In this document: positions 29,806 to 60,659 of the stretch, piece after piece
How the letters are laid out: each line of letters opens with the position of its first letter
Numbering within the stretch: the stretch's first letter is position 1
The notes under the pieces: generated by a model
Seen by the model: the letters and a program-made list of their open reading frames with translations, nothing else
Told to the model about the DNA's origin: nothing
Database searches by the model: none
Translations under genes and position numbers: made by a program
Assembly: GCA_964511155.1 (NCBI GenBank)
Contig: CAZEEJ010000005.1
Span: 1 to 60,659 of the forward strand
Direction of reading: 5' to 3'
DNA: 60,659 nt
From: an uncultured Planctomycetales bacterium
GTDB lineage: Bacteria; Planctomycetota; Phycisphaerae; UBA1845; PWPN01

Positions 29806-30359
29806 GTGCCGCGGTCCTCGAACTGCATGGAGTAGACCATTTGCCTGAAAGCAGCCACATCCTGTGCGGTAATCTCCCGCGGGGATCGTCCCGGATAGGG
29901 CGCCTCGATCATGGTGAACCGGCTGCGGCGGTCCAGGTACTCCGCCAGACCGCATAGCACGCGCGCAGGGACACCCGCAGCCACGGATCGGTCCGGCACA
30001 TCCTTGGTGACCACGCTGCCCGCGCCGATGACTACCTGGCTCCCGATTCGCACCCCCGGCATGATGATGGCCCCATACCCGATGAACACCTCGTCACCAA
30101 TCCACACCGGAGCGACACGGTATTCCCCGGTATGCAGGTAGTAGCTCGCATCATGGCTGAGGATCATCGAACTCGGACCGATGACGCAGTTGCGCCCAAT
30201 GTGGATCAAACGCGGAAACATGCCGTCGAGGTTCTCGCGCATGAGCCGCGTACCCGCCCCGATATCCAGGTCCGCCATCCAGGCGAACGGATCCTCCTTC
30301 ACCAGCGATCGAGAAATCCGGCGAAGAATCCTTTTCAACACGGGGAGCCTCCTCGGCAC
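29799..30359 (-). CDS. Left-handed beta-helix acetyltransferase (maltose/galactoside O-acetyltransferase-like)
   Basis: VWIGDEVFIGYGAIIMPGVRIGSQVVIGAGSVVTKDVP. Confidence 0.85.
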   Translation of the reverse strand: MPRRLPVLKRILRRISRSLVKEDPFAWMADLDIGAGTRLMRENLDGMFPRLIHIGRNCVIGPSSMILSHDASYYLHTGEYRVAPVWIGDEVFIGYGAIIMPGVRIGSQVVIGAGSVVTKDVPDRSVAAGVPARVLCGLAEYLDRRSRFTMIEAPYPGRSPREITAQDVAAFRQMVYSMQFEDRGTC

Positions 30360-42600: not shown

Positions 42601-45600
42601 ATAAACGTCGTAGGTGGTCGCGGCCCCGTGATGACGACCGACGTGTGCCACGGCGTTGGCCAGGATCAGCCCGCCGTCGGTTGCGGCGCTCCAGAACTCG
42701 ACGTTGACCCGGTCGGAGGTCGGGTAGAGCGCCAGATCCACGCGGGGTACGCCGTCGATCTCACGGACGGCGATGAGCGGCGCCCCGTCGCTCCACGCGG
42801 CCACGAAGGAGGCACCGGGCGACAGATACGACGAGCGCACGCGGAAACTGCGCTCACCGCCGTCGAAGCTGGTTATGCCGCTGAGCACCGGGTGCAACGG
42901 GTCGAAGCGGTCGCCGAGGGTCTGCCGCGGCCGGTCCAGCAGGCCGGGCAGGAGACCGCCCGGGTAGTCGATGCAGGAGTACCGGCCCTCCAGGAAGCGT
43001 CCGAGGAGCACGCTGTACGATCGGACGGAGACGTTGGCGAAAATCGCGACCACCACGCCGCCGCCTGCGTCGATGTAGTCGGCCAGCACGTCCCCGAGCG
43101 TAAACGGGTCGTCGAACTGATCGTTGCTCCAGACGATGACTCCGTCGAAGGCCAGGAGATCCGCCAGCGTCGGGGTCTCCCGGGCGGCATCGATGATGAC
43201 TACTTCGTGGAACCGGCCGCTGGCCAGGAGCCAGTCTCGCGTGTCGGTGAAATGCGGGTCGCCCGGGCCGGCCGGGTAGGCCGCCGCCACGATGGCCGCC
43301 CGGCGGTAGGCGGGCTCCGCTCCAGAGAAGGTCAAGGCGGACAGGTCAATGGGCACGGCTACGGCACCATCGGGCGGGTCCGGCCCGGCGAGTGGCGAAG
43401 GGGCCGCGACTACGCGGATGGTCGCGGTCGCCGGCAGAGACTCACCGCCGCCCGGGGGCTGGCCGCCGTCATGGGCACGGTAGGTGAATCGATCCACGCC
43501 GCTGAAGCCCGGATCGGGCGTATAGAGCACGCTGCCCGCGCCGATGTCGCCGCTAAGCTGCCCATGCGCGGGGTGGGTTTCCACCAGGTAATGGATATTA
43601 CCGGGCTGAGGAGGCTGGCCGTCGTCGTCAGCCGTCAGCACAACCGTCACCGGCGCGGCGACCGCGGTGGTGACGAGCACGTCACGGGCCGTCGGCGGGC
43701 TGGTGGCGATGACCGCCAACTGCACATCCCGTGCCGTGCCAACGCCGGCGGCGAGGTCGACGAAGTGCACCCGGGCGGCGTACGACCAGTCTCGGGGCGG
43801 CAGCGCGGCGGCGGCCTCGTTGACGCATACCTCGACGGTGACCGTCTGCTCCACCGTAAGCGTGCCGCCGTCGGGGGTTACCGTGACCCAAGGTTGATCC
43901 GCGGTCGCCGTCCAGGACACGTCTTCCGCGGGCTGGGCCGAGTTCCGCAGGGTATAAGTCGTGCAAGCCGGCTCGAACGGCCCGCCCGGCGCCCCCCGGG
44001 CCGCAAGGCCACTGGAGGGCTGCACAGCCAAATGGTCCGACCCGCAACCGGCCAGCCCGGGCAGATCGCTCTCGATGAAATCGGCCGGCACGCCCGTACC
44101 GCGGCTCAGGCCGACCACCGGGTCATTCGCCCCCGCTTCCAGCCACGACATGCGCAGCCGACCGTCGAAGAACATCTCCACCTGGAAGGTACTCAGCCGT
44201 GCCGTGGCCGCGTCGCGAATCTGCTCCCAGGTGACGGCGATCCGGTCGGTCAACTGCCGCCAACTGATATGACCATCCTCCGCTGGCGAATACCAATCGG
44301 TCAGGGCGGCTATGCGCGGCAAGGCGAAGTGCCCCGCCAGGTCGTTCGCCGCGGAGTCCCAGCTCGTGAAGGTGATCGATCCGCTGGTATTGATCCAGAA
44401 CACGTCGTAGGCGACGCCGTAGAGCATCACCTTGCGGCCGTCGAGCGGTCGAACCTGCGTATGATTCTTGACCCACGTGCCGCCCGACGGATCGATGGGC
44501 AACGCGTCGATGGGCGTCACGCAGGCACGGTAGAAGTCGATCGAGCCGTCGGGCGTGAACTGGACGCTGTGATGGGCCAGGGGGACCTCGCCGCGCAGAA
44601 AGTGCTGGGCGAAGTAGTCTGGGGCATCGGGAGTGGCCAGTACATGGCAGGCCCCGCCCTGATCGTCGAGGGTGACGTTGCCCGCCCGGTCCTGGGCGTG
44701 CACCGCGAACCGGTACGTCCGGTCGGGCAGCAAGCCCGCGAGCGACACGTTGTGCTCGGTGCCGTACCCGATCCCCAGGGCGGCCTGCTCCAGGTCGTCG
44801 CACGAGGTTCCCCAGTGCACCGCCACGCTCGCGGGCTCGTCCGTGCGAAGCATGACCCGTGCGGCCAGGGCCGACACTTCCGCTACGGCCAGCTCGGAGA
44901 TAACCGGAGCGACGCAATCCACAAGCGCCTCGGCCTGCGGGGTTGCCGAGGCCCCCTCCCCGGTATCGGCATCGAAGAACTCGACGGTGAGGATCTCGCC
45001 GTCGGCGGCCGCGAGCCCCCCGGCCTCGTTGAGCCGCACCGTACCGGTGAAAGTGCCGGTATCCGGCCCGGTCTCGGTCAAGAATAGCGAGGCGCCGGTC
45101 GGATCGCTCGACGTCCACACGCGGGCCTCGGCGACCTCGACCGTCGAGGGGTCTTCGTTCAGGTCGCAGTCGTTGACGGTGACCGTGACGCCGCCGGTGC
45201 AGGTATAAGCCTCCGCGTTGAGCGTCACCGTGGCGGCCCGCGAGCAGCCGATCATGGGCGGTGAGGTGACCAGCGAGAAGACCTGCGGCCCGAGGGGGAC
45301 GGCATGACCGCTCACCCGGATCACCCACAGGCCCGCGGTCGGCGTATCGACAACCACCTGCTCGATATTGTTGAGCCGGTCGGCGTGCGCGCGAACCGCG
45401 GGCTGGCCGGGCTGCTGCGGATCCAGCGTCCACGGGAAATGCACCACGTGGCCGTCCGGGGCGATGGCCACGACATCGAGATCGTTGACCAGTTGCGGGA
45501 TGGTGTTGGCCGCACCGGATGGGTCGTCCCAGGCCAACGTGGCCCGGAGTTCCGCCGTACCCGGCAACACGTCCACCAGGAACGAGCGGGCCTCCGACTG

Positions 45601-47415
45601 GTCGATCGGCTCCTCTCGGACACTGCGGGTTCGCAGCAGGTCGACGGCCTCGGCCGTGCGGACGGAGCCGTAGCCGGACTGGTAATCAGGCCCTACCACA
45701 CCGAGGTCGGTCGCGGTATGGGCCAGGATGGCCTTGAGCGTCGCATTACGCGGCAGGTCGGCACCGGGGAAGAGCGTTTGCCATTCCTGCAGCAGCAGGG
45801 CGCCGACGCCGGTGACCGCGGGGGCCGCCATGGAGGTACCGCAGAGCACGCTGTAGCCGCTGGTGCCGGCCGTCGAGGTGATGCCGCGATCCCCGCCGAC
45901 CTCGCAGCCGGGGGCACACACGTCCGGCCGGAGGCGGCCGTCGTCGGTCGGGCCCCAGCTCGAGAAAGAGGTCATCGAATCGTCGTTGGCGTTGATGGCC
46001 CCGACGGCGATGTGATTCTTGGCGCCGGCCGGCGGGGCCGTCGTGTAGTACAGGTTGCCGCAGCGCAGGATCGAGCGTTCGTTGCCGTTGGCCCAGACGA
46101 TGCGCATCGGGCTGCCCAGGCTGCCGGTGACGATGGCGTCGATGAGCATCGCGGTCACGCCGTAGTCGCCGGTGATGTCGCAGGGAAAGCCGTTGCGGGC
46201 GGTGTTGGTGCCGATGGAGTTGTTGGCCAGATGGGCGCCGTGCGTCTGCATCGCCTCGCGGTAGTCGGACTCGATGTCGCCGGGATTCGTGTAGAGGAAG
46301 ATGCCCGTCTCGTCATACTCGAAGCCGTAAGACTGGATGAGCACACCGGGGGCCATGCCGCGGTACTGCCCGAGGCTGGCGGTGCCGTCGCCGCCGATGG
46401 TGCCGGCCACGTGGTGGGCGTGGCTGCTGAAGCCGGAGGCGTCGCGCACGGTGAGCCTGCCGCCGAAATCCAGGTGGCTCGGGCTGGCGGTGCCCGCGTC
46501 GTAGAGCAGCACGTTGACGCCGCTGCCGTCCAGGCCGTACGGGCCAGGCTCGGCCTGGACAAAATCCGCCTGGGTCAGCAGGCGCGAGCCGTCGTTGACC
46601 TCGCCCATGCGGGGCAACGGCGGCTCGATCCACTGCACGACCTCCTCATCCGCCAACGCGTTGATCTTCCCCAGGGGCAGTTCGATCACCAGCCCGTTGA
46701 TCGAGGTAATTTCCGCACGCACGCGGGCCTGGTGCCGCCCGCAGACCTGCACGGCCGTTGGACGCAGCGGCACATCGGGATGGAAAAGGGCGTACACGGC
46801 TACGATCGCGGCCTCCGCAGGGAGGGGATCCTCCGCCAGACGTGTGGCATCCTCCGCCCGCGGGGCTTCGGGCACGTGCGCCCAATCCGGTGCCTGCCCC
46901 GCGGCCAAGGTCGGGTGCAGCTTCCAATCCCTCCGGATCGCCCGCACCTCCGCCAGGCCGGCAGTGCCCGCAATGGCCGCGACATCCGGCTTGGCCAGCT
47001 TGAGGGCGGCGAACCAGGCATGATCGCCCAGGTAGGTCAGTAGTCGCAGGCCGGCTTCACGCAGCGTCCCGCGGGTGACGGGGCTGATCGGGCCCTCGAA
47101 CCGCACGACGATGTGCCGTACCGTCGACCCGGGCGCCGCGGCCTGACCCGACCTGACCAGCTCCGCCACCGCGTCGGCCCGCGCGGCGGGTGTGTGCAGG
47201 GCCTCGGCGACCAGCCCCTCCGCGGTGCCCGGGTTACGCCAGCGGATGGTTTCCGCCGCCGCACCCGGGGATGGAAGCATCAGAAAAAGGGATGCCAGCG
47301 TCAGGCACCGGAATGCCAGTGTCAGACACCGCTGTGCGGTGCAGAACCGTGACGCACGCCCGCGCCAACGCGCAGACCGATTCCCCTGGCTCGCCGCGCA
47401 GTCGGTACCCCACAT
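39676..47415 (-). CDS. Giant (2579 aa) secreted multidomain subtilisin-like (S8) serine protease with C-terminal dockerin-type repeats
   Basis: Signal-like LTLASLFLMLPSPGAAA. Catalytic triad motifs VLLYDAG, HAHHVAGTIGG, GTSMAAPAVTGVGALLL. P-domain-like segment, FN3-like modules (YDVYFG...YYWQVVAENRAG; YDVYLG...YQWTVVARNACG), cadherin/VCBS-like and LamG/DUF1080-like segments. Tail DVNGDGVADVLDL...DVNADGIIDLDDL. Confidence 0.9.
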   Translation of the reverse strand: MWGTDCAASQGNRSARWRGRASRFCTAQRCLTLAFRCLTLASLFLMLPSPGAAAETIRWRNPGTAEGLVAEALHTPAARADAVAELVRSGQAAAPGSTVRHIVVRFEGPISPVTRGTLREAGLRLLTYLGDHAWFAALKLAKPDVAAIAGTAGLAEVRAIRRDWKLHPTLAAGQAPDWAHVPEAPRAEDATRLAEDPLPAEAAIVAVYALFHPDVPLRPTAVQVCGRHQARVRAEITSINGLVIELPLGKINALADEEVVQWIEPPLPRMGEVNDGSRLLTQADFVQAEPGPYGLDGSGVNVLLYDAGTASPSHLDFGGRLTVRDASGFSSHAHHVAGTIGGDGTASLGQYRGMAPGVLIQSYGFEYDETGIFLYTNPGDIESDYREAMQTHGAHLANNSIGTNTARNGFPCDITGDYGVTAMLIDAIVTGSLGSPMRIVWANGNERSILRCGNLYYTTAPPAGAKNHIAVGAINANDDSMTSFSSWGPTDDGRLRPDVCAPGCEVGGDRGITSTAGTSGYSVLCGTSMAAPAVTGVGALLLQEWQTLFPGADLPRNATLKAILAHTATDLGVVGPDYQSGYGSVRTAEAVDLLRTRSVREEPIDQSEARSFLVDVLPGTAELRATLAWDDPSGAANTIPQLVNDLDVVAIAPDGHVVHFPWTLDPQQPGQPAVRAHADRLNNIEQVVVDTPTAGLWVIRVSGHAVPLGPQVFSLVTSPPMIGCSRAATVTLNAEAYTCTGGVTVTVNDCDLNEDPSTVEVAEARVWTSSDPTGASLFLTETGPDTGTFTGTVRLNEAGGLAAADGEILTVEFFDADTGEGASATPQAEALVDCVAPVISELAVAEVSALAARVMLRTDEPASVAVHWGTSCDDLEQAALGIGYGTEHNVSLAGLLPDRTYRFAVHAQDRAGNVTLDDQGGACHVLATPDAPDYFAQHFLRGEVPLAHHSVQFTPDGSIDFYRACVTPIDALPIDPSGGTWVKNHTQVRPLDGRKVMLYGVAYDVFWINTSGSITFTSWDSAANDLAGHFALPRIAALTDWYSPAEDGHISWRQLTDRIAVTWEQIRDAATARLSTFQVEMFFDGRLRMSWLEAGANDPVVGLSRGTGVPADFIESDLPGLAGCGSDHLAVQPSSGLAARGAPGGPFEPACTTYTLRNSAQPAEDVSWTATADQPWVTVTPDGGTLTVEQTVTVEVCVNEAAAALPPRDWSYAARVHFVDLAAGVGTARDVQLAVIATSPPTARDVLVTTAVAAPVTVVLTADDDGQPPQPGNIHYLVETHPAHGQLSGDIGAGSVLYTPDPGFSGVDRFTYRAHDGGQPPGGGESLPATATIRVVAAPSPLAGPDPPDGAVAVPIDLSALTFSGAEPAYRRAAIVAAAYPAGPGDPHFTDTRDWLLASGRFHEVVIIDAARETPTLADLLAFDGVIVWSNDQFDDPFTLGDVLADYIDAGGGVVVAIFANVSVRSYSVLLGRFLEGRYSCIDYPGGLLPGLLDRPRQTLGDRFDPLHPVLSGITSFDGGERSFRVRSSYLSPGASFVAAWSDGAPLIAVREIDGVPRVDLALYPTSDRVNVEFWSAATDGGLILANAVAHVGRHHGAATTYDVYFGTDNPPATLACRSALDHRCPRPTPLRYGTTYYWQVVAENRAGRIAGPVWSFSTPPVAAVEARDSVEPADDLTVPFGETALGTARAETVTVCNTHASADLVLDRVRGEPWEQYAEGFEDGPPEDWVPAVSEHWEAREGSYQAWSEAAGARLQATYVGRQWADACVRFRTWRLGSPNNMAGVAVRATKDFDWATATGSAYMVAISGTGRFYVGRQLEGEFVFLADWQASPHLKGLIGVNHLAVNLAGERLEVYLNGMLAWAGSDDALPDAGYVALLGFSDLPESRLTRHFYDDLSVTGPLPLPSEPVPIPVSAAPVAVDDLLAQSVPEDLPPEPTAGELELLAVQQDIAMPDPCAGFRLPDPPAEPLVLAPGECRELPVTFVPTVEGPAECALRIDGNAADVPRLEVRLLGTGGPGYLQVAPPPEEPGMVTGPEGGPFTPLCIEYLLSNNGPVTVNWVAQPGAAWLDVQPAAGSLGPGGSVAAAVCLNLQADSLPPGDHPVEVVFRDTDAILTHSRTLVLSVCALPRLPLMPYPADGQPDVPPEPPLAWNVGLPVPQQCHPLGTAQVSYSARDQVLANVITVNEPQTLHEFKVQLDFVGAASLEFLVLEAVAPAGLFMPLRVGTVQAAGTGKTLYSSGLMHVPLYPERAYALGVAWGMERIGFGLQHQSYPVDWPLGTLEGYLYGSAQAVPLGGDARFWGGSAIPMTLCVNPAGQVAYDVYLGPAGAPGLLMCEGAVGPVCDLPVPLDFGTTYQWTVVARNACGQRVGQAWSFSTVPCTDDPPVVDRAAGRRPVLRLTHGAAGGFDQELLADPGQPAPIECRIGGPAWLLVNFTRPVQAPAGLHPTAVRIVDAAGAEVPVADIALDHDQLAVMLDAVPAETVMVSFPGLADARDPTCLVTDTFCVRLLPGDVNGDGVADVLDLVAARTAMAWPVDAARFRLDVNADGIIDLDDLVAIRRHLNTHLAPCEPGTRAP

Positions 47416-47507
47416 GCTCCGCTTCCTCCGCTACCGCCTCCCTATGATGATATCCGTCCGCCGGGCCGGTTTCTATCCGGGTCGCAAGCGACCCGGCTAA
47501 ACGGCTG

Positions 47508-47545
47508 CCTCCTGTCTTCTGTCTCCTGTCTCCTGTCTTCTCTCC
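47508..47545. repeat. CT-rich heptamer microsatellite (CTGTCTY)n in the leader of the giant protease gene
   Basis: CCTCCTGTCTTCTGTCTCCTGTCTCCTGTCTTCTCTCC, read directly. Confidence 0.6.
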
Positions 47546-47586
47546 AACAAAAACCCCCTGTCCGCCTGCGAGAGGCGGACAGGGGG
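47546..47586 (-). terminator. Rho-independent terminator after the 861-aa secreted protein gene
   Basis: 13-bp perfect stem CCCCCTGTCCGCC / GGCGGACAGGGGG with a 7-nt loop. On the minus strand it is followed by TTTTTGTT. It begins 33 nt after the stop. Confidence 0.75.
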
Positions 47587-47618
47587 CTCGAAATCATCAG
47601 GCGATACGACGAACCGGA

Positions 47619-50204
47619 TTAGTCGTCGCAGGCCGGGTCGGCGTCCACGCCCGCACCGCTGTAGCAGGCCTCGAACGCCAGGAAGTCCGTCGCATCGACG
47701 GCACTGTTGAGATCCCGATCGAAGCACCAGCAGTTGTCTTCATCGAAGACCCCTTCCGGATCGCCGGGGCCGGTGTAGCAGAGCTGCCAGGCACCGAAGT
47801 CCAGCATGTCCACGTCACCGTCGTCGTCGATATCCGCGAACGGCTCGTTGCACCGGCGGCAGACCTCCTGACCCTCGCAGTCGGGATCGTCGCAGTCGGT
47901 GAGCCCGTCGCAGTCGTCGTCCGCCTCGTTGTCGCACACCTCCGGAACACCCGCGATGGTGATCACGCACACGGCGCCGAGGATGTCCGTGCAGCGTTCC
48001 TTGGTGCCGCAGTCATCGGTCACCTCGCAGCAGTAGTTACCCCCGTCGGCGCAAGTGGCCGCCAGGATCCGGTAGGCGCTGTCCGTCGCGCCCTGGATCG
48101 GCTGCCCGTTGAGCTTCCACTGGAAGGTGAGGGTGCCCGTGCCGCTGGCGTAGGTGTTCATCCAGTGACCGTTCTCGCCCAGATTGACGACCCCGCCGTA
48201 GCCCACGTGGGAGATGGACGGGCCATCGCTGATGAACAGCCCCGCGGCCGCGGTGACGATGGGATCGCCACCCTCATTGCAGTCGTCCCAGAGCGTGCAG
48301 CGGTACTGCGTGTTGTGGTCCTGGGTGGTCACGCCGGTGAGGGTCAGCGTCGCGGTATCCGTCCCGGAGACACTTCCGACGTCCGTCATGTCATCCCAGG
48401 TCGTCAGGCTGGCGTTGTACTTCTGCCACTTGTAGGTGATGTCCCCCACGCCGCTGGCGTTCACCGTGAAGCTGACGTTCGAGTTAATGCAAGCGCTCTT
48501 GGTGGCAGGCTGCGCAACGATCTGGAGGCCGATCTTCAGGACGGTTGCATCGCTGATGATCACGCCATTGTCGCCGCAGATGATGACCGTCAGCAGGGAG
48601 TTGGCGTCACTGGCCGGGATGTTGCTCAGCGACAGGTTGGCGGTCTGGGCACCGGAAACGTTGGCGCCGTCGACCAAGTCGACGCCGTCCTTCTGCCACT
48701 GATAGGTCAGGTTGGTGTCACCGCTCGCGGTCACGCTGACGTTGGCCGAGCCGTCCGGGCAGGCAACGACCATATCAACGGGCTGGGCGGTGATCTGCGG
48801 TCCGCCGCTGCCGCCCTTGTTCAACGTGAACGTGGCGGTCGTGGTGCTGCTGGAGTTGGGCCCATCCGGCGGGGACCAGATCCGCAGGTACTCCCGTGCG
48901 TTGTCGATGGTATAGAGGTTGCCGACGGCATCGAAGGCCACGTCCTGGACGGCACCGCTCGGTGTGCCGGCAAGCCGGCTCACCACGAGGTCGAAAACAA
49001 CCTGCCCGTTGGCCATGTTGTAGAAGTACACGGTGCCGTTCACCCCATGGCCATACGCGATCCAGCCCTTGGGCGAATGGCCGCCGATGCCTCTGGCGTA
49101 GGTGTAAGGCGAAGCCGCAGAGGCTTCCCAGGTCGGCGTGGCCAGCGGCGGGGTACCGTTGAGGAACTTGGAAATCGGCGGGGCCTGATTCGGGCTGGCC
49201 CGGTACTGGTTGACGTACCAGTCGCCATTGGCATCGCCTTCAAAGTCGTAGGGGTAATAGGTGAAGTACGATCGCGGAATAAACTGCGTGCCCTGGTCAC
49301 CCGGGGTCACGATGTCGTTGCTGCCGAGATCGTAGCGGATGATGCCCTTGCGCGCGGTGTCCAGGTAGTTATCGTTGACCAGGTAAATCTGCCGGTTGCC
49401 CGCCGCCTTGGTCCCGGTCACGTAGATGCTGCGCACATACTGGGCCGAGGACCGGTTGCTGGCATCGATGAGCTGCGTGGCGACGGACATATCGTCGTTG
49501 AACTCAAAGACCAGGTCGCGGTTGTAGTCGGCCACGTACACATGGCCGTCCGGGCCGATGGTCATTCGGAGGGGGGCGGAGTAGTTGGTCCCATCCCAGT
49601 TCCAGGTCAGGCCGCCCTGATGCACGCCCATGTCCACGGCATCGGCCCGCAGCATGTAGATGCCGTCCGTCATGGCCCGGCCGGTGGCCGTCGGCAGGTT
49701 GGAGGCCTGCGCCACGTAGATCCGGCCGTACTTCGAGCTGGCCGGGTTGGTGTTCACGCCGATACCCTGGGGACGCTCGAAGTGCGTGTCCTTGTTGGGG
49801 GTATCGTCAACGCTGATCTGCGTCCAGCTCGAGTACCCGAGGTCGGCGGCGGTGATCTTCACCTTGTACGGGCTGCCCGCGTTGTCCGCCCGGTCGCCGT
49901 TGTCTTTGCGGCCGTCCCACTGCCAGGTGTACTTGCCCTTCTTCTGTGAAGCGATGGTAATCGTCCGCACGGCCACGGAGTCCTTGTCGAGCACCTCGAT
50001 CTTCACGCCGGGCAGCACGTCCGTTCCCGCCGCGTCCTCGTTCAGGACGTAGTCGACCTTCAGCGTGCCGCACGTGTCCTCGTTCAAGCCCGTGGTGTTG
50101 ATGGACACCTCCGCCGGGTACACGTTACCCAGCACAACAGCCGGCAACATCGCCATGCAGGCTGCCGCCAGGCCCCCCACCAATTGTCGATAACCTTGTT
50201 TCAT
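47619..50204 (-). CDS. Secreted protein: FlgD-Ig-like N-domain, beta-propeller-like region, three Ig (I-set-like) modules, Cys/Asp-rich module and a dockerin/EF-hand-like tail ending ADPACDD
   Basis: Signal MKQGYRQLVGGLAAACMAMLPAVVLG with RBS AAGGAG. Repeated YQWQKDG / YKWQKYN / FQWKLNG Ig blocks. CDNEADDDCDGLTDCDDPDCEG. DIDDDGDVDMLDFGAWQLCYTGPG. Confidence 0.85.
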   Translation of the reverse strand: MKQGYRQLVGGLAAACMAMLPAVVLGNVYPAEVSINTTGLNEDTCGTLKVDYVLNEDAAGTDVLPGVKIEVLDKDSVAVRTITIASQKKGKYTWQWDGRKDNGDRADNAGSPYKVKITAADLGYSSWTQISVDDTPNKDTHFERPQGIGVNTNPASSKYGRIYVAQASNLPTATGRAMTDGIYMLRADAVDMGVHQGGLTWNWDGTNYSAPLRMTIGPDGHVYVADYNRDLVFEFNDDMSVATQLIDASNRSSAQYVRSIYVTGTKAAGNRQIYLVNDNYLDTARKGIIRYDLGSNDIVTPGDQGTQFIPRSYFTYYPYDFEGDANGDWYVNQYRASPNQAPPISKFLNGTPPLATPTWEASAASPYTYARGIGGHSPKGWIAYGHGVNGTVYFYNMANGQVVFDLVVSRLAGTPSGAVQDVAFDAVGNLYTIDNAREYLRIWSPPDGPNSSSTTTATFTLNKGGSGGPQITAQPVDMVVACPDGSANVSVTASGDTNLTYQWQKDGVDLVDGANVSGAQTANLSLSNIPASDANSLLTVIICGDNGVIISDATVLKIGLQIVAQPATKSACINSNVSFTVNASGVGDITYKWQKYNASLTTWDDMTDVGSVSGTDTATLTLTGVTTQDHNTQYRCTLWDDCNEGGDPIVTAAAGLFISDGPSISHVGYGGVVNLGENGHWMNTYASGTGTLTFQWKLNGQPIQGATDSAYRILAATCADGGNYCCEVTDDCGTKERCTDILGAVCVITIAGVPEVCDNEADDDCDGLTDCDDPDCEGQEVCRRCNEPFADIDDDGDVDMLDFGAWQLCYTGPGDPEGVFDEDNCWCFDRDLNSAVDATDFLAFEACYSGAGVDADPACDD

Positions 50205-53712: not shown

Positions 53713-53795
53713 CCGCACCCGCGGGACGCCGGTGCCACACGGTAGCGGTCGCCCCCCGACTTCGGCGAGCTCAGCCGAGCCGTGGCGACCGGCGT
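53713..53795. repeat. Composite family C/D repeat copy
   Basis: CCGCACCCGCGGGACGCCGGTGCCACAC followed by GGTAGCGGTCGCCCCCCGACTTCGGCGAGCTCAGCCGAGCCGTGGCGACCGGCGT. Matches 31309-31418. Confidence 0.8.
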
Positions 53796-53797
53796 AC

Positions 53798-53892
53798 AAC
53801 GAGCCGCGGGCTTCAGCCCGCGCGGCTCTCCGGTCGGGATCAACGCTTCCCTCACGCACAAGCACCGCGCGGGCTGAAGCCCGCGGCTCGTT
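53798..53892. repeat. Perfect 28-bp inverted repeat pair (AACGAGCCGCGGGCTTCAGCCCGCGCGG / CCGCGCGGGCTGAAGCCCGCGGCTCGTT) separated by 39 bp
   Basis: Read directly. Each arm also contains its own hairpin CGCGGGC-TTCA-GCCCGCG. Confidence 0.85.
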
Positions 53893-53919
53893 AGATACTA
53901 GACCTGGCCATGCGTGCCT

Positions 53920-54175
53920 GCGTGCCGGCGTTCAACGCATCATCTTGAACGGCAGCTTCGTCACGGATATAATAGAACCGAACGACGTGGACTGCGCGCT
54001 GCTGATCGGGCGAGGTTTTCCGAAGGATCGGGCGGCGGAAACGGAGCTTCGTGCTGGCCTGCCGTTCCTGGATATCGCGATCGTCCGACGAACGGACTTC
54101 GAGCGACTGGTCAAGGTGGTGTATGCGACCGATCGTTACGATGCGCCGAAAGGCATGATAGAGGTTATCTCATGA
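53920..54175 (+). pseudogene. 5'-truncated remnant of a DUF6932-like (GSFVT-motif, nucleotidyltransferase-fold-like) gene
   Basis: QRIILNGSFVTDIIEPNDVDCALLI... looks like the C-terminal half of that family. No plausible in-frame start lies between the repeat DNA and the conserved block. The listed ORF start (53732) lies inside family C/D repeats. Confidence 0.35.
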
Positions 54176-54560: not shown

Positions 54561-56999
54561 TCAGTCGTCGCAGGCGGGGTCGGCGGGGATCTCCGCGCCG
54601 GAGAAGCACAGACGCAAGCGGCTGAGGTCGTGCACATCCACGTCGCCGTCCTCACCCAGCCGGGCCCCCGCACAGGCGGGACCGTTTTGAGCCATGCCGG
54701 CACCGGTCAGGCAGGCTTGCAGCCGGGCGAAGTCGTCGAGGTCCACGTCGCCGTCCCGATCGAGGTCCGGCCCGACGCTACGCACATCGACGGATACCGC
54801 AAGGGTCTGCGAGCCGTTGAAGGCTTCCGGCGATGAAACGGTGATAGTAGCTTCGTGCACCCCGATGGGCAGGTCGGCCACGTCGTAGGATATCCCGATC
54901 ATGACGGGCTCGCTGCCGCACGTGCCGCTGTCCGGTTCCACGAGCAGCCAGTCGGCATCCACCGTCACGCTGTAGTTCAACGTCCCCGGCCCGGTATTGG
55001 CGACCGCGAAGCTGCCGGCGGTCAGGTTCTCTCGCCAATGGACGGAGCGCTCGAGCCGGTCGGGGCTGCGCCACAGCGTGGGAACCTCGATGACCACGCC
55101 GAAGGGGTTGGTGAAGGAGCTGCCGCCCTGGCCGGCCATTTCCGCCCGGACATAGGTGTCGATCCCGGGCGTGTTGAAGTAGTCGAGCGTCGGGCCGACG
55201 TGGATCACCACGCCCGCGGAGATCCAGCGGTAGTTCGCCTCGGGGAGCGGCTGATCGCCGGAGGAGGCAAATACCGTTATTGTACCCCCTGCGGCATCGC
55301 GAACGATCGCCTCGATCACCGGGGTCTGAGCGACGCTGCGAGACGCCGTCGGGGCGGTGGCCACGGAGCTGAAGTAGAACTGGCCGCGTTCCAGCGCCTC
55401 GCGGGCATGGCCCTCGGTCAGGCCAGCGAGGAGTAAGGTATTCCAATCGCGGCCGAGATGGCTGAGCGTGTGCATATCGTCGCAGGCAAGCCCCCATACG
55501 GGCCGGTCGGGCATCAGAATCGCCAGAACCTGGTCCCAGAGGTGCAGATCGTTGCCGGGCCAGACCGGCGACCAGTTGCCGTTGTAACGGCCACCCTGGT
55601 TGATGACCTCGAGACCGATGAGATGGTCGTACGTGGTGAACCAGCCGACGTAATCCTGAACCGTGTAGGTGTAGCGGCCGGGATGGTTGAGCACGGCCAG
55701 GCCGCCGGCCGCACCGACCTCCGTGAGCGTCTGCTCGAGATTGCTCGACGTGGTTTCGTACTGGATGAAGAAACTGTTCATGTGGTGGTGCTGGGATGTT
55801 TCGTTACCCGCGGTCGCCACCATGCCGAGCAGACCCGGGTCCCGGCCCCAGTTCTGCCACGGCCAGGTGCAGCGGTTGTGGTCGGTGAGGGCGAGGATCG
55901 TGTAGTCCCGCTGATGGTACTCGTCGATCGCCTGGGACGGGCTGAGGGAACCGTCACTCTGCGTCGTGTGGGTGTGCAGGTTGGCCTTGTGCTGCACGAA
56001 CGTGCCCCAGTCCACGTCCGCATACGGGTCTACCAGCGTGATCCATTCGTAGGCGAACACCTGGACGGACAAATCATCATCTTCGAGGCCCGCGTCGTTG
56101 GTTGTGGCGATCGTGGCGCGGCCCGCCGAGCCGATGTCCACGTGGATGGTTTGCTGATCGGGCCCCCCGGCGGCGAAGAGCACGGTCAGCACCCCGCCCG
56201 CCCCGCCGACGGGTGCCGCGACGGCCGGGTTGTCCGACGTGAGCGTGACCTGCACCGGATGAACGGCATTGCTGCCGGGCGCGATGGCCAGCACGACCGG
56301 CAGGTCCGCTTGGCCGGCCATCGTACGGATGAAGTCGGGCGTCAGGCGGACCCCGGTCACCGGCGGGCTGAAGGTGACGGTGAGCTTGGGTCTGCGGGCG
56401 GCATCCGTGCTCTCGCTACTGCGGATCTGAACGCCATCGGTGCCGGTCGGGCGGAAGATCCACCCGCGATTGCCCGTCGGGTTCGCCTGCCAGCCGACGA
56501 GGCTCGCCGTGACATTCAGGTCCATGCCGCCCAGAACACCGCCGTTGGCAGTGCCGACCAGGGCACCGTATTCATCGGGCTGTACGCCGGCATCGCCACC
56601 GAAGTTGTTGTACGTGGTGGACGCGGTCCAGGGCACCAGGACCTCGTTGACGTTACCGGCATGCCCGATATTGATGATGTCACAGGTGAGGATCGCCGAC
56701 TGGATCGTCGCCCCCGGCGGGATCTGCCCGGGGCCCGAGCCGAAGAGCCCCTCGAAGCGCAGCAGGCCATAGTTGACGCCCCCACCGTCGTCACCATCCC
56801 ACTCGATAACCGCAGCGGAGCCCTGCGGGGTGTCCGCCGCGGAACCTTTCAGGAACGTGTCCACCGCCCCGGCGTAGCCGCCCGCCCCCTGCTGGAAGAC
56901 AAGGCTCTCCGCCAAAACAGGCGACCCGGCAGCCAGCGTCACCAGAACCAGGGACACCAGCAGGGCGGCGCCTCTCTCCACCTGCCAAGGATATGCCAT
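54561..56999 (-). CDS. Secreted PHP-domain (metal-dependent phosphoesterase fold) protein with DNRLRE-like N-domain and a dockerin/EF-hand-like tail ending ADPACDD
   Basis: ATG at 56999 (MAYPWQVERGAALLVSLVLVTLAAGSPVLA) with GGAGG 8 nt upstream. PHP motif HTHTTQSDGS...ALTDHN. Tail DLDRDGDVDLDDFARLQACLTGAG...GEDGDVDVHDLSRLRLCFSGAEIPADPACDD. Confidence 0.85.
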   Translation of the reverse strand: MAYPWQVERGAALLVSLVLVTLAAGSPVLAESLVFQQGAGGYAGAVDTFLKGSAADTPQGSAAVIEWDGDDGGGVNYGLLRFEGLFGSGPGQIPPGATIQSAILTCDIINIGHAGNVNEVLVPWTASTTYNNFGGDAGVQPDEYGALVGTANGGVLGGMDLNVTASLVGWQANPTGNRGWIFRPTGTDGVQIRSSESTDAARRPKLTVTFSPPVTGVRLTPDFIRTMAGQADLPVVLAIAPGSNAVHPVQVTLTSDNPAVAAPVGGAGGVLTVLFAAGGPDQQTIHVDIGSAGRATIATTNDAGLEDDDLSVQVFAYEWITLVDPYADVDWGTFVQHKANLHTHTTQSDGSLSPSQAIDEYHQRDYTILALTDHNRCTWPWQNWGRDPGLLGMVATAGNETSQHHHMNSFFIQYETTSSNLEQTLTEVGAAGGLAVLNHPGRYTYTVQDYVGWFTTYDHLIGLEVINQGGRYNGNWSPVWPGNDLHLWDQVLAILMPDRPVWGLACDDMHTLSHLGRDWNTLLLAGLTEGHAREALERGQFYFSSVATAPTASRSVAQTPVIEAIVRDAAGGTITVFASSGDQPLPEANYRWISAGVVIHVGPTLDYFNTPGIDTYVRAEMAGQGGSSFTNPFGVVIEVPTLWRSPDRLERSVHWRENLTAGSFAVANTGPGTLNYSVTVDADWLLVEPDSGTCGSEPVMIGISYDVADLPIGVHEATITVSSPEAFNGSQTLAVSVDVRSVGPDLDRDGDVDLDDFARLQACLTGAGMAQNGPACAGARLGEDGDVDVHDLSRLRLCFSGAEIPADPACDD

Positions 57000-57075
57000 C
57001 GGGCTCACCTCCAACTGTTAAGGATAGGTAAAGACAACGGAGAACTCAAGGCGGTGCGGGCCAGAAGAAGCCCCG

Positions 57076-57226
57076 GCCCACAGATCACTCAGATGACGTA
57101 ACGTGGGCTCTGCCCACAACCCAAAACGAATCTCACGCAGAGGCGCAGAGACCGCAGAGACACTCAGCAACGCCTCTCTCTGCGATCTCTGCGCCTCTGC
57201 GTGAGATCTCCTCTGGCTGTGGGCAT
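57076..57226. repeat. Family F copy (57076-57097) followed by a large nested palindrome (about 57110-57226; core arms ATCTCACGCAGAGGCGCAGAGACCGCAGAGA / TCTCTCTGCGATCTCTGCGCCTCTGCGTGAGAT)
   Basis: Read directly. Outer arms CTGCCCACAACC / GGCTGTGGGCAT. Lies in the divergent spacer between the PHP and STAND genes. Confidence 0.8.
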
Positions 57227-57526: not shown

Positions 57527-60500
57527 TTGGCCAAGGCCCCTACAGACGCTGCCTTCGTTATTACGGCCGCCGGGGTTGCGGGATTCGCCGTGCTGTGCGC
57601 GACGGGGATCGTACCCACCGCCGTCTTGGCAAGCGCGACAGGCGGCCTGGGTGCCAGCGTGCTCGCCGGCGTAATCGCCAACGCTCTGAGCGCAGCGGCC
57701 CGCTGCACGCCTTCGCGCTTGCGTTCCTCCACCAGTCTGGGCAAAAACAACGACCTCGTCCGGCTCACGGCGGACGCCGCCTACCATTGTGCGCGGACGG
57801 TAACAGAGCGGCGCCCGCGCTGGAAAGTTTGCTGCTGGGGCGAGCGTCGGGCGCTGGGGCGGGCCGCCCGCAGACTGCGAGAACAGTGGGCCAACGTGGA
57901 TGCGTCGAGTCTGGGCGAGACCTGCCGCTCTGAACGGGTCGTTGACTGGTTCCGGCAATCCATGACCGATGCGGCGGGTATTCCCGCTCCCCTGGATCTG
58001 CACCAGTGGAGGAACTTGGTCTACAACGCATGCGACGGCAAGCTCGCCACCAAGTTGCGCGACGAGTTGGCGGCCGAACTCCACGCGAAGTTCACGCGCT
58101 GGGTGCGCGAGCGTTTCAAGGCCGACGCCATGGGCGACACCCCGGCCAAGGGGCGCGCCTACGCCGCCCTCCAGATGGCGTTGCTGGGCGGGTTGTATGA
58201 AGCGATAACCCAGGTAGCCGATTCCAGCGAGCGCACCAGGGTGGGCGTCGATCAGCTTACCAAGGCCGTCGAGGACATCCGCCGGCGCGTCGACGACATC
58301 GCCAAAGCCCACCCCGACCTGAGCGAACTGGCCAACCAACTCCGGCAATCCGAAGCTCGATTGCTCGAAGCCATCGGCGCCAACCACGCGCCGCTTATCA
58401 CGCTTCCCAAGCCCGATCCCGAGGGCCCCCGCTTCGTCTTCCGTACCGAGCGGCTCACGCTTGTCGGCCGCGAGGCGGAACTGGCGGAACTCAACGGCTG
58501 GCTCGACGAAGAGCGCCCGTTCTCCTGGGATCTGTGGACCGGCCCAGCCGGCAGCGGCAAAAGCCGACTAGCTCTCCGCCTATGCCGCGAGCGGACGAAA
58601 GAGGGCTGGCGAGCGGGTTTCTACGACCACCAGAGCGACCACCCCGTCCGTTGGGACAACTGGGACCCTGCCCGCGACACCCTGATCGTCTTCGACTACG
58701 TTCACGAACGCGCCGATAAGATCGGCGCTGCCCTGCGCACACTGGCCGGCCGGTCGTGGCCCAAGGGGCGACGCGTGCGCGTGCTGTTGCTGGAGCGCGA
58801 GATCGCGCGACCGCCGGACGCCCCCAAGGAGGACGTACCGACCAAGGTCACCCAGGCGTTGCCCGGCTGGTTTGACGAGCTGATTCGTGAAGGCAAGCAG
58901 AACCCCGCCCCCTTCCGCGAGACGCACGCCCGTCAGGACATCGAACGACCCGAGCGTCCCATCGCCGGTGTGGATGACGACGCCCTTGCTGCCATGGTGC
59001 GGGAGGAGACGCGGCTTGCGACGGACGGAACGCCCGCTGTGATCGAGGATGATGAGGTCGCGAAGCGCATCAACATCATCAAGCAGATCGACCCGCGCGC
59101 CCGCCCGCTCTTCGCCGCGATGGCCGCCGAGGCGATTCGCGAGAACACGGCGACTGATGCTACGCTCGCGAAATGGGACGTTCGCGAACTCGTCGACTAC
59201 ATCCGCGACAAGGAGCACACCCGCTGGACCAAGGCATTGAAGGGGCATGGCGTCAGCGAATCTGCCGCCATCGCCCGCTGGGAGCGCTTTGCGTGCCTGG
59301 CCACCATGTGCGGGGGCTTGATCGGCGACGCCCGCCGAAAGGCCTTGACCCATAGCAACGCGGGGCTGCCGAATCGGGAAGACTGGCGCAACGGCGAGAC
59401 CTACCGCCTGCTGATCGCGGGCGGCTCCAACGACGAAGCCGCCCCCCTCGAACCGGATGTACTCGGCGAGGCATACGTACTCGATTGGCTTGGGGATGAT
59501 CCGGACTTTGCCAAGGGACTCGTTGATCTGGCCTGGCAAGTGGGTTCCGGAAGCGGCCAAGGAGCCAGCGGCCGCGCAGGCGGCGCCGGCTTTGCCGGCT
59601 TCCTCACCCGGGCGGCGCAGAACTTCCCCGACCATCCGATGGTCGATCAACTCCTTGCCCCCATCTCGGTAGCCGATCCGAGAGCCCTGGCCAACGCCCA
59701 CCTTGCGCGCACCCTGCGCCCCTTCCTGGCCGGTGATTTGACAAAACTTGCCGCACGCGGCCGCACGCTCCTGCTTGCCCCAGAGCAGCCCCCGCTCGTG
59801 CGGACACTCGGCGCACTCATGTGGACCCAAGGCCCTTTCTCCGCGGAGGCCCTCGACGAGTTGCTCGACGAGGTAGGTCCACTCAACAACCAACACACCG
59901 AGGACGCCGCCGTACGCGAGCTGTTGGCCCAGGGGCTGGCCAACGCGATCGCCCACGCCGGGGCCGACCACGACCGGGCGGACCGGCTGCTGGACGAGCT
60001 ACGCACGCTGCAACAGCAGCACGCCGAGGACGCCGCCGTGCGCGAGCAGTTGGCCAAGGGACTGAACAACGTCATCTTCCACGCCCGGGCCGACCACGAC
60101 CGGGCGGACCGGCTGTTGGACAAGCTGCGCACACTGCAACAGCAGTACGCCGAGGACGCCGCCGTACGCGAGCCGTTGGCCAAGGGGCTGAACAACGCCA
60201 TCGCCCACGCCGGGGCCGACCACGACCGTGCGGACCGGCTGCTCGACGAACTGCGCACCCTGGACCAGCGGTACGCCGATGACGCCGCCGTGCGCAGGCA
60301 GTTGGCCAACGGGCTGTTCAATGCCTTTAACAACGCCGGGGCCGACCACGACCGCGCGGACCGGCTGCTGGACGAGCTACGCGCACTGCAACAGCAGCAC
60401 GCCGAGGACGCCGCCGTACGCGAACGGTTGGCCAAGGGGCTGACCAACGCGATCGCCCCCGCCGGGGCCGACCACGACCGCGCGGACCGGCTGCTGAAAG

Positions 60501-60659
60501 AGCTACGCACACTGCAACAGCAGCACGCCGAGGACGTCGCCGTACGCGAGCTGTTGGCCAAGGGACTGAACAACGCCATCGCCGACGCCGGGGCCGACCA
60601 CGACCGGGCGGACCGACTGCTGGACGAGCTACGCACACTGCAACAGCAGCACGCCGAGG
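57527..60659 (+). CDS. STAND-type P-loop NTPase with N-terminal TM helices and a C-terminal 42-aa helical (TPR-like) repeat array; runs off the right window edge
   Basis: Not in the ORF track. The frame with codon starts congruent to 2 mod 3 is open from the TAG at 57377-57379 to the window end. Walker A WTGPAGSGKSRLAL (58541 onward), Walker B-like TLIVFDYVHE. TM stretch AAFVITAAGVAGFAVLCATGIVPTAVLASATGGLGASVLAGVIANAL. Start proposed at TTG 57527 (GAGGA 7 nt upstream). Alternatives are GTG 57590 and ATG 57962. Confidence 0.8.
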   Translation, partial: MAKAPTDAAFVITAAGVAGFAVLCATGIVPTAVLASATGGLGASVLAGVIANALSAAARCTPSRLRSSTSLGKNNDLVRLTADAAYHCARTVTERRPRWKVCCWGERRALGRAARRLREQWANVDASSLGETCRSERVVDWFRQSMTDAAGIPAPLDLHQWRNLVYNACDGKLATKLRDELAAELHAKFTRWVRERFKADAMGDTPAKGRAYAALQMALLGGLYEAITQVADSSERTRVGVDQLTKAVEDIRRRVDDIAKAHPDLSELANQLRQSEARLLEAIGANHAPLITLPKPDPEGPRFVFRTERLTLVGREAELAELNGWLDEERPFSWDLWTGPAGSGKSRLALRLCRERTKEGWRAGFYDHQSDHPVRWDNWDPARDTLIVFDYVHERADKIGAALRTLAGRSWPKGRRVRVLLLEREIARPPDAPKEDVPTKVTQALPGWFDELIREGKQNPAPFRETHARQDIERPERPIAGVDDDALAAMVREETRLATDGTPAVIEDDEVAKRINIIKQIDPRARPLFAAMAAEAIRENTATDATLAKWDVRELVDYIRDKEHTRWTKALKGHGVSESAAIARWERFACLATMCGGLIGDARRKALTHSNAGLPNREDWRNGETYRLLIAGGSNDEAAPLEPDVLGEAYVLDWLGDDPDFAKGLVDLAWQVGSGSGQGASGRAGGAGFAGFLTRAAQNFPDHPMVDQLLAPISVADPRALANAHLARTLRPFLAGDLTKLAARGRTLLLAPEQPPLVRTLGALMWTQGPFSAEALDELLDEVGPLNNQHTEDAAVRELLAQGLANAIAHAGADHDRADRLLDELRTLQQQHAEDAAVREQLAKGLNNVIFHARADHDRADRLLDKLRTLQQQYAEDAAVREPLAKGLNNAIAHAGADHDRADRLLDELRTLDQRYADDAAVRRQLANGLFNAFNNAGADHDRADRLLDELRALQQQHAEDAAVRERLAKGLTNAIAPAGADHDRADRLLKELRTLQQQHAEDVAVRELLAKGLNNAIADAGADHDRADRLLDELRTLQQQHAE
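59897..60659 (+). repeat. Six complete 126-bp tandem repeats, plus the start of a seventh, inside the STAND gene
   Basis: Unit boundaries at 59897, 60023, 60149, 60275, 60401, 60527 and 60653. Consensus AEDAAVRExLAKGLxNAIxxAGADHDRADRLLDELRTLQQQH. Confidence 0.9.

Follow-up and report, generated by a model that had tools for sequence, protein, structure and literature searches.

The 60,659-nucleotide stretch analysed here (contig CAZEEJ010000005.1 of assembly GCA_964511155.1, from an uncultured Planctomycetales bacterium; hereafter the window) ends within a tandem array of 42-codon repeats, and amino-acid change among the repeat units is concentrated at five codons, at which nonsynonymous divergence exceeds synonymous divergence. 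The array forms the 3' end of one long open frame on the + strand, which begins at 57527, runs to the window end with 1044 visible codons and encodes a STAND-type protein. We consider that the array is probably the C-terminal ligand-sensing solenoid of a single-gene, NLR-like STAND receptor, diversified by selection and by recombination among the repeats.

Variable codons of the repeat array

When we examined the window with Tandem Repeats Finder (TRF), a period-126 array was found at 59894-60659 with 6.1 copies, 86% matches and no indels, and it comprises six complete in-frame 42-codon units of 126 bp each. The consensus unit is HAEDAAVRELLAKGLNNAIAHAGADHDRADRLLDELRTLQQQ, and the similarity of the units to this consensus is 0.889. 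In pairwise comparison, the six units show inter-unit identities of 82-92% for nucleotides and 71-88% (mean 80.5%) for protein, and all six are mutually distinct, in frame and free of stops. A preliminary description of this DNA had called the units nearly identical and homogenised. Six complete and similar units are indeed present, but "nearly identical" overstates 82-92% identity, and "homogenised" is too strong for an array with an inter-unit synonymous divergence of about 0.2. The same description had the array continuing beyond the window, and this was borne out: array and gene run past the window end, where a seventh unit has begun with CACGCCGAGG, and the C-terminal cap that is conserved in all complete homologues is absent from the window. 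In the register used here the unit begins HAEDAAVRE, whereas the earlier unit begins one codon later, at 59897, and our codons 10, 13, 16, 20 and 21 are therefore the former positions 9, 12, 15, 19 and 20.

Amino-acid variation occurs in 18 of the 42 codons and synonymous variation in 11. Only five codons are multi-state, namely 10 (L/Q/P/Q/R/L), 13 (Q/K/K/N/K/K), 16 (A/N/N/F/T/N), 20 (A/F/A/N/A/A) and 21 (H/H/H/N/P/D), and the residue strings first reported for them agree exactly with our unit table. These five codons hold 55 of the 123 pairwise amino-acid differences (45%, versus 12% expected from five of 42 positions). Helix A, the first of the two helices in each unit, accounts for 75 pairwise differences and helix B for 25; the changes in helix B are singletons only, and its earlier characterisation as almost invariant stands. 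The conserved scaffold of each unit consists of buried Leu/Ala positions, all of helix B, and Asn17, which is conserved in 80% of 746 repeats and has a central place in the variable arc. Plotted on a helical wheel, these five codons lie at 60-200 degrees, an arc of 140 degrees, and the variability moment points to 121 degrees, about 170 degrees from the hydrophobic moment of helix A (309 degrees).

We then compared rates of nonsynonymous (dN) and synonymous (dS) change, using the Nei-Gojobori method and minimum-change counts rather than recombination-aware codon models. By Nei-Gojobori, dS in the window is 0.24 over the unit core, while dN is 0.61 at the five codons (ratio 2.6) and 0.05 at the other 29 codons (ratio 0.22), and none of 20,000 random five-codon sets reached the observed nonsynonymous divergence. 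Since picking sites from the same data inflates such a ratio, it was cross-validated in four ways. The top five positions taken from other arrays (20, 16, 10, 34 and 13) give a proportion of nonsynonymous differences (pN) of 0.39 in the window versus a synonymous proportion (pS) of 0.20, with a pN of 0.054 elsewhere. When the five positions defined in the window were applied to ten independent arrays at the DNA level, dN/dS was 1.25-27 in nine of the ten; the tenth (L057) is saturated at synonymous sites (pS 0.75) and gives no ratio. The youngest arrays show the highest values at the five positions (L085 9.6, L087 4.7, L006 6.7, L004 9.5 and L086 27), and the remaining positions have ratios of 0.2-1.6. 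In the minimum-change count, pooled over 11 arrays, there are 0.853 nonsynonymous changes per nonsynonymous site at the five codons, compared with 0.509 synonymous changes per site and 0.275 nonsynonymous changes per site at the other codons (binomial p = 2e-5). Finally, we compared 45 arrays whose units have a mean identity of at least 0.65 and whose proteins share less than 50% identity with one another; variability is highest at positions 10, 16, 13, 21 and 20 (diversity 0.57-0.68, mean 0.61), followed by a sixth position at 0.35 and a mean of 0.16 for the other positions. The same five positions head all 45 arrays taken together, and what was seen in six units thus characterises the repeat family as a whole. 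The per-site comparison of dN and dS that had been proposed as a check places the excess at the five codons in the window and finds it again in nine of ten other arrays, and with more units at hand the most variable positions are the same five.

An ordinary scaffold or adaptor solenoid would offer a simpler account, in which the five positions are merely the least constrained exposed residues, the similarity of the units comes from recent expansion, and neither diversifying selection nor recognition is involved. Exposed helix positions are usually the most variable ones in any repeat protein, and the window units are only moderately similar to each other (82-92% at the nucleotide level). The ratio falls to 1.25-1.7 in the oldest arrays for which it can be computed (L003 and L008), the most diverged array (L057) being saturated, and the minimum-change count in L003, L008 and L057 is only 1.0-1.3. 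However, relaxed constraint caps dN/dS at 1, yet the young arrays reach 4.7-27, and even in the conservative pooled count the five codons exceed the synonymous rate 1.7-fold (p = 2e-5). In helix B, exposed charged residues stay conserved, and the variability is therefore not general to exposed residues. In addition, the five positions are enriched in aromatics (50% at position 16 and 32% at position 21, versus 0-4% at exposed helix B positions), and the lead of the same five in the 45 arrays is separated by a clear gap from the sixth (0.57 versus 0.35). Based on these observations, we regard the plain scaffold as unlikely.

The variable codons keep their third base and vary at bases 1 and 2 (NNC at 16, 20 and 21, and CNG at 10), a pattern that adenine-directed mutagenesis of AAC or CAG codons would yield. 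The variation might thus be made by targeted mutagenesis, for example by a diversity-generating retroelement (DGR) acting on AAC-type codons, and in multicellular bacteria DGRs are known to diversify the sensors of conflict systems associated with STAND proteins (PMC10907252). On the other hand, NNC/NNG variation is expected anyway when the GC content of third codon positions (GC3) is about 0.8-0.9, and a DGR target has one variable region, whereas here all units of many arrays show the pattern. The 20 open reading frames (ORFs) of the window that were scanned, namely the ten closest to the gene and ten of medium size lying farther upstream, yielded no reverse transcriptase domain, the part downstream of the window being unseen; this argues against a DGR, as does the absence of any gene conserved beside the homologues in 17 loci. 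With no rival diversification machinery in these ORFs and loci, the recombination named in the preliminary description is left without a competitor there, and we judge targeted mutagenesis to be very improbable.

Protein architecture and repeat fold

The frame is open from 57380, and its likely start is a TTG codon with the Shine-Dalgarno-like sequence AGAGGA 8 nt upstream. This TTG is aligned with the Met start of the closest homologue (P0001), which comes from a Phycisphaerae metagenome-assembled genome (MAG) and shows 66% identity. The GC3 of the gene is 0.81, and 14 close homologues have E-values from 0 to 1e-72. The features of the gene are collected in Table 1.

Table 1. Features of the STAND/NLR-like gene and its repeat array (positions in the window; aa, amino acids)
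Feature	Position	Strand	Basis and remarks
STAND/NLR-like gene	57527..60659	+	Open frame, start alignment, GC3, homologues; 3' end beyond the window
Gly/Ala-rich hydrophobic segments, aa 11-58, with 1-2 transmembrane-like helices	57557..57700	+	Kyte-Doolittle
Helical N-terminal domain, aa 75-290	57749..58396	+	AlphaFold2 helices, pLDDT ~70-80
P-loop NTPase core, aa 302-427	58430..58807	+	Motifs, family alignment, weak Pfam matches, Foldseek
Walker A, GPAGSGKS	58541-58564	+	Invariant in the 14-sequence family alignment
Walker B, LIVFDYV	58682-58702	+	LIVFDY (58682-58699) invariant in the 14-sequence family alignment
Sensor-1-like motif, VRVLLLER	58775-58798	+	Invariant R424
Helical arm from NTPase to array, aa 447-789	58865..59893	+	AlphaFold2 helices H447-H789; conserved across the family
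Six complete repeat units	59894..60649	+	Helix A codons 5-22, helix B codons 26-42; TRF, unit table, DSSP, dN/dS
Hypervariable codons 10, 13, 16, 20 and 21 of each unit	nt offsets 28-30, 37-39, 46-48, 58-60, 61-63	+	
Start of the seventh unit, 10 nt	60650..60659	+	CACGCCGAGG, same as the start of units 2, 5 and 6

The STAND definition that Leipe et al. gave in 2004 is said to comprise a Walker A motif GxxxxGK[ST], a Walker B motif of the hhhhD[DE] kind and a sensor-1 arginine after strand 4 (hhhT/SR-type), followed by helical and winged-helix modules. In the window protein, GPAGSGKS and LIVFDY correspond to the two Walker motifs, and RVLLLER with the invariant R424 stands at the place expected for sensor-1 and is followed by helical modules, among which a winged-helix domain was not individually identified. 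The protein also has the tripartite STAND layout, with an N-terminal module, a P-loop NTPase with its helical arm, and C-terminal repeats. Among Pfam models, nSTAND_NTPase5 (PF25199) matches with 23 bits (E = 7.6e-5), below its gathering threshold of 34 bits, and AAA_16 matches weakly with 20.5 bits, whereas no NACHT or NB-ARC model matches the window protein at E <= 1. Only two of the 14 family members match nSTAND_NTPase5, both below threshold, and more distant relatives (P0016-P0018) carry the domain; judged by sequence, the NTPase appears to lie near the nSTAND_NTPase5 clade and is not a demonstrated member of it. Scans of the window protein with NCBIfam and PADLOC gave nothing credible.

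An AlphaFold2 model of the whole visible protein has a mean predicted local distance difference test score (pLDDT) of 75.5, with about 90 in the repeats. When this model was searched with Foldseek, the best matches were the SIR2-STAND protein EfAvs5 (E = 4.6e-6), SAMD9, AVAST5 and a wheat resistosome, with alpha-solenoids next. These immune and antiviral STAND matches extend to E = 2e-3, but their template-modelling (TM) scores are only 0.17-0.27, and they therefore support similarity at the superfamily level only. Taken together, the Walker A, Walker B and LLLER sensor-1-like motifs, the weak Pfam matches and the antiviral STAND structural neighbours uphold the earlier link of the array with a STAND-type protein.

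The hydrophobic segments at the N-terminus average 1.6-2.2 in a 19-residue Kyte-Doolittle window, and 12 of 13 family members have equivalent segments within their first ~90 residues. They are modelled with low pLDDT (<35) and match no Pfam family, and the helical domain that follows reaches no Pfam, NCBIfam or PADLOC family above threshold. Relatives exchange this N-terminal module, carrying for example transmembrane-like segments or DUF4062. On its N-terminal side the array is capped by degenerate solenoid turns, which are part of the helical arm that links it to the NTPase, and the unit just before the array (59768-59893) retains only ...ALDELLDEV... of the repeat.

The repeats alone were modelled with a pLDDT of 93.8 and a predicted TM score (pTM) of 0.88, and their pLDDT is about 90-94 across models. 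DSSP assigns two helices per unit, separated by a short loop. The structural neighbours of the repeat-only model are designed armadillo (ARM) repeat proteins and importin-alpha (E ~1e-4, TM ~0.5), and the LGN TPR domain appears only at rank 34 among the Foldseek matches listed. No Pfam repeat model matches the window units, either in the whole protein or in three-unit segments, and a phmmer and profile search of the repeat against the sequences of the Protein Data Bank returned nothing meaningful. Three-unit segments touch TPR_14, TPR_19 and TPR_16 at E = 0.004-0.1 in one to three of nine cases, the relative P0031 reaches TPR_14 only cumulatively, and another relative touches HEAT_2.

Several classifications of the repeat were tried and rejected. 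Armadillo homology was dismissed with an hhalign probability of 0.05% against the designed ARM consensus and with two helices per unit, not three. Homology with the KLC-type TPR was discarded after comparison with the TPR protein P0021 (hhalign probability 0.2%, BLASTP E = 0.97), and membership of the TPR clan was also rejected, as no TPR model matches the window protein. Hemerythrin, SPOR, DUF7553 and a weak TPR_14 in the Pfam, NCBIfam and PADLOC scans of the protein and in the scan of three-unit segments were spurious or sub-threshold. Because the repeat has neither a sequence relation to the ARM consensus nor a Pfam repeat model match, we call it, on the basis of the models, an unclassified predicted two-helix 42-residue alpha-solenoid, not demonstrated to be TPR, HEAT or ARM, and its resemblance to armadillo and TPR proteins is kept as structural only.

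Repeat number, assembly and gene neighbourhood

A three-unit profile was searched against 1.84 billion representative proteins, and it matched at least 1,180 proteins at E <= 1e-3, 676 at <= 1e-10 and 225 at <= 1e-30. Among the best 146 new matches, 126 have three or more units, and the mean inter-unit identity is at least 0.65 in 45 of these. Related arrays were found in Planctomycetota, Acidobacteriota (Vicinamibacterales and Bryobacterales), Armatimonadota (Fimbriimonadaceae) and one Cyanobacteria MAG.

Complete relatives carry from one to about 15 units. A difference in number is found between P0008, with three units followed by the C-terminal cap, and the product of L085, with at least nine units up to the contig end, the two being 99.1% identical over residues 1-974. 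The part of L085 concerned is 5801-6931, and its 174-kb contig ends within the array; the pair represents either a real difference in repeat number between close strains or a collapsed assembly. In P0005 (L001, 2822-4216) a two-unit block recurs, and in P0026 a two-unit block is repeated three times. Such repeated blocks are what unequal crossing-over produces, and they indicate recent multi-unit tandem duplication. P0005 also mixes units of 42 and 48 residues, the longer ones having the loop insertion SRPAEQGG. Informative biallelic sites of the window array form ten pairs, of which five fail the four-gamete test within 126 bp; this is consistent with gene conversion, recurrent mutation being an alternative and the counts low. 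Unequal recombination or gene conversion had been put forward from the first as the source of diversity, and the block duplications, the four-gamete failures and, if it is biological, the contrast of three and at least nine units at 99.1% identity favour it.

Here, we need to consider that the array could be partly an artefact of assembly, with collapsed or chimeric units or a contig broken in the repeat, such that the order, the number and some variants of the units would not be biological. The window ends inside its array, and the homologous loci L085, L006 and L010 likewise stop at a contig end inside theirs, from which it follows that assemblers break there. Repeat domains of high identity need long reads (PMC12222747), and the arrays of two long-read MAGs are split over reading frames. 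However, the six window units are all different, in frame and free of stops, and at least 1,180 protein clusters contain this repeat family with these variable positions, many of them with complete genes on long contigs. Moreover, an artefact would not give a position-specific nonsynonymous excess, and we think it quite unlikely that assembly accounts for the array in this way.

The two split arrays belong to the same family and lie at L014 7552-12441 (Vicinamibacterales) and L035 7261-8921 (Bryobacterales), where they extend over two to three reading frames, which suggests long-read indel errors or pseudogenisation. The units of L035 have about 41 residues (123 bp), and their second half is different. 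As for the strain of the window itself, a search for the rest of the array in the collections genome_contigs and metagenome_contigs gave best matches of 66% and 43% identity and not the contig of the window. However, an 861-aa protein encoded at 47619-50204 is encoded 100% identically on ~3-kb Logan contigs (L158-L160) from several runs, among them SRR35045364, SRR35056693 and SRR27710276, and public raw reads of the same strain therefore exist.

The window is ordinary chromosome, with genes for polysaccharide biosynthesis, an alanine racemase, a DEAD-box helicase, a giant secreted subtilase and a BACON-domain protein. Since no gene is conserved beside the homologues in the 17 loci compared, the STAND gene is taken to be a stand-alone gene. 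Upstream of it, in the divergent intergenic region shared with the 817-aa ORF at 54561-57014 (-), which has a BACON domain, lies an inverted repeat (57130-57207) with 31-nt arms, 97% complementary, and a 16-nt spacer; it occurs once in the window and may represent a REP-like element, an operator or an RNA hairpin. A small ORF at 53732-54175 (+), which lies upstream of the STAND gene at a distance of about 3.3 kb, matches DUF6932 (E = 1.6e-8) and is not conserved beside the homologues. A BACON domain is also present in the 2579-aa protein encoded at 39676-47415 (-), together with a subtilase domain, Big_9 and a C-terminal dockerin. Two further repeats were seen in the window. At 47505-47590, 4.9 copies of the heptamer CTGTCTC adjoin a hairpin that is strong and rich in GC (ccccctgtccgcc...ggcggacaggggg). 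The heptamers and the hairpin are both downstream of the point where the - strand ORF for the 861-aa Ig-domain protein stops. At 26038-26141, a 36-bp tandem repeat (2.9 copies, 89% matches) lies at the junction of the - strand ORFs 25050-26030 and 26017-30093.

A putative receptor mechanism and known systems

In the mechanism we propose, the five positions of successive units would join into a single uninterrupted surface for recognition that runs along the solenoid. New specificities would arise from point substitutions under diversifying selection, and unequal recombination or gene conversion would duplicate, delete and reshuffle units while keeping the scaffold alike. As in STAND/NLR proteins (PMC13581612, PMC4986451), binding of a ligand, possibly a phage or other foreign protein or a peptide, to the variable stripe would release autoinhibition. 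The NTPase domains would then oligomerise and gather the N-terminal hydrophobic helices to act on the membrane, and the cell would die or stop growing, in an abortive-infection or non-self response. The weakest step is the role of the N-terminal segments, which are a candidate membrane-acting effector by their sequence.

Several points weigh against this receptor. First, the clustering of the five positions on the helical wheel is not significant by itself for the window (2264 of 20000 permutations) and marginal when eight arrays are pooled (903 of 20000). With a permutation result this weak, the claim that they lie on one helix face, made in the preliminary description, rests mainly on their opposition to the hydrophobic face. 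Second, pairwise dN/dS uses non-independent recombining repeats and few sites, and the strong codon bias at GC3 may depress dS. Third, the difference between three and at least nine units could be a collapse of short-read assembly. Fourth, the NTPase reaches no curated Pfam threshold, the evidence for an effector at the N-terminus is hydrophobicity conserved across the family, and the family is known from sequences and models. Finally, no defence model of PADLOC-DB v2 is matched, apart from weak hits to LmuB (E = 3e-4, in a coiled region) and DruC (4e-3), and the gene is in no recognisable defence island, its neighbours being the BACON-domain protein, a cytochrome-like protein and polysaccharide biosynthesis genes; this missing context weakens the immunity reading without excluding it.

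The same chromosomal context without defence genes and the same lack of a PADLOC match would suit a MalT/AfsR-type signal-transduction STAND or a membrane-associated regulator, which would sense an endogenous or environmental ligand rather than serve in conflict or immunity, and many bacterial STAND proteins are in fact regulators. However, a DNA-binding or enzymatic output domain is not present, and the protein has a hydrophobic N-terminus that is module-swapped between relatives (transmembrane-like segments or DUF4062). Diversifying selection and change of copy number mark conflict or non-self recognition, not the sensing of a fixed metabolite, and the closest structural neighbours are antiviral STANDs. 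We therefore give a regulator little credence, slightly less than an assembly artefact.

The diversified receptor proposed above could also take a more specific form, which we put forward as speculation and hold to be rather unlikely. The array would be a putative programmable solenoid for reading peptides or proteins, in which Asn17 serves as a backbone anchor, the five residues of each unit read a short stretch of an extended ligand, as in designed armadillo repeat proteins, and specificities are generated combinatorially when unequal recombination shuffles existing units. If this were true, a widespread unannotated family of at least 1,180 clusters would contain a somatic-like repertoire generator for membrane-acting immune or kin-recognition receptors.

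The results provide quantitative evidence from bacteria, with the same five positions in dozens of independent arrays and nonsynonymous change above synonymous change there, whereas the published bacterial surveys that we found only note such arrays and ask whether they are adaptive. The repeat and the NTPase clade lie below current domain models, and annotation-based surveys may undercount NLR-like receptors in Planctomycetota, Acidobacteriota and Armatimonadota. What these receptors see becomes experimentally approachable through unit swapping, and the unit of 42 residues, in which the scaffold is fixed and five positions would set specificity, is a candidate natural template for the engineering of binding proteins.

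In structure, the repeat is closest to the armadillo proteins (importin-alpha and designed armadillo repeat proteins; 4rv1, 5mff and 6s9o), which share the 42-residue period and the right-handed alpha-solenoid and give the best repeat-only structural matches. The window units differ in having two helices where armadillo has three, and in lacking a sequence relation (the hhalign value given above). Asn17, in the middle of the variable helix face, is reminiscent of the Asn ladder of ARM helix 3, to which it may correspond.

Among antiviral systems, the bacterial Avs proteins are single-gene antiphage STAND pattern-recognition receptors (PMC13581612). Like the window protein with its candidate effector, Avs and AVAST proteins (9jap EfAvs5 and 9nc9 AVAST5) combine in a single gene an N-terminal effector, a STAND NTPase and a C-terminal alpha-helical sensor, and Avs and AVAST5 are the best whole-protein structural matches to the window model. 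The Avs sensor is TPR-like, binds a phage protein and triggers oligomerisation. However, Avs sensors are irregular and non-homogenised and read conserved phage folds by shape, whereas the putative sensor of the window protein is a regular array with hypervariable positions, and the window protein matches no PADLOC Avs model, lies in no defence island and has low Foldseek TM scores. The DGR-diversified STAND and conflict sensors (PMC10907252, PMC7159879) are likewise hypervariable putative antigen sensors on NTPase systems, found in bacteria of complex life style, planctomycetes included. In those sensors the reverse transcriptase acts on one C-type-lectin/FGS variable region, whereas the variability of the window protein extends over every helical unit.

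The closest parallel in diversification comes from fungal NLRs, which have highly similar repeats with few positively selected surface positions and undergo repeat reshuffling (PMC4986451, PMC13449251). The HET-E/HET-D/NWD WD40 proteins and the Podospora TPR/ANK NLRs (PMC4986451, PMC13449251, PMC12222747) resemble the window protein, with its candidate effector, in joining an effector, a NOD-type NTPase and superstructure-forming repeats. Their units are about 80-90% identical with a handful of hypervariable, positively selected surface positions each, their repeat number is polymorphic, and they are hard to assemble from short reads. Measured against the repeats of high internal conservation (HIC) in fungal NLRs, the window array has a similarity of 0.889, above the Psim >= 0.7 used there (PMC13449251), and a mean pairwise identity of 0.805, calculated by hand and not with T-REKS. 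Hypervariable, positively selected repeat positions, also counted in HIC repeats, are present here by Nei-Gojobori and minimum-change counts. Repeat-number polymorphism may be represented by the three versus at least nine units of one homologue pair with 99.1% identical flanks, for which a collapsed assembly is the alternative. In contrast with the fungal proteins, the window protein is bacterial, its NTPase is weakly nSTAND5/AAA_16-like and not NACHT/NB-ARC by Pfam, its repeat is not a recognised WD40, ANK or TPR, and its N-terminus is a hydrophobic helical module and not HET or HeLo.

Bacterial NB-ARC/NACHT proteins with TPR or WD repeats have internal repeats of 80-90% identity, for which diversification was suggested and left open (bioRxiv 10.1101/2020.01.06.895854), and whether this is adaptive in other phyla "remains to be seen" (PMC13449251). 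These proteins, from Actinobacteria and Cyanobacteria, are like the window protein in being STAND proteins of high internal identity, and a 42-residue helical period occurs in the TPR-like "42PR" class (bioRxiv 10.1101/2020.01.06.895854, citing Marold et al. 2015). None of the 50 Foldseek matches listed for the repeat model is a 42PR structure. The surveys of these proteins (that preprint and PMC13449251) start from annotated TPR, WD, ANK or LRR repeats and from NACHT, NB-ARC or nSTAND1-3, whereas the repeats of the window match no Pfam repeat and would therefore be missed by annotation-based surveys. The taxa differ as well, being Planctomycetota, Acidobacteriota, Armatimonadota and a Cyanobacteria MAG here and Actinobacteria and Cyanobacteria for the earlier NLRs, and positive selection, which was only hypothesised for those, has been measured in the repeat family of the window. 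What sets the locus apart from the known bacterial and fungal NLRs is the nSTAND5-near NTPase, the repeat that Pfam does not recognise, the other taxa and the direct dN/dS evidence in bacterial arrays.

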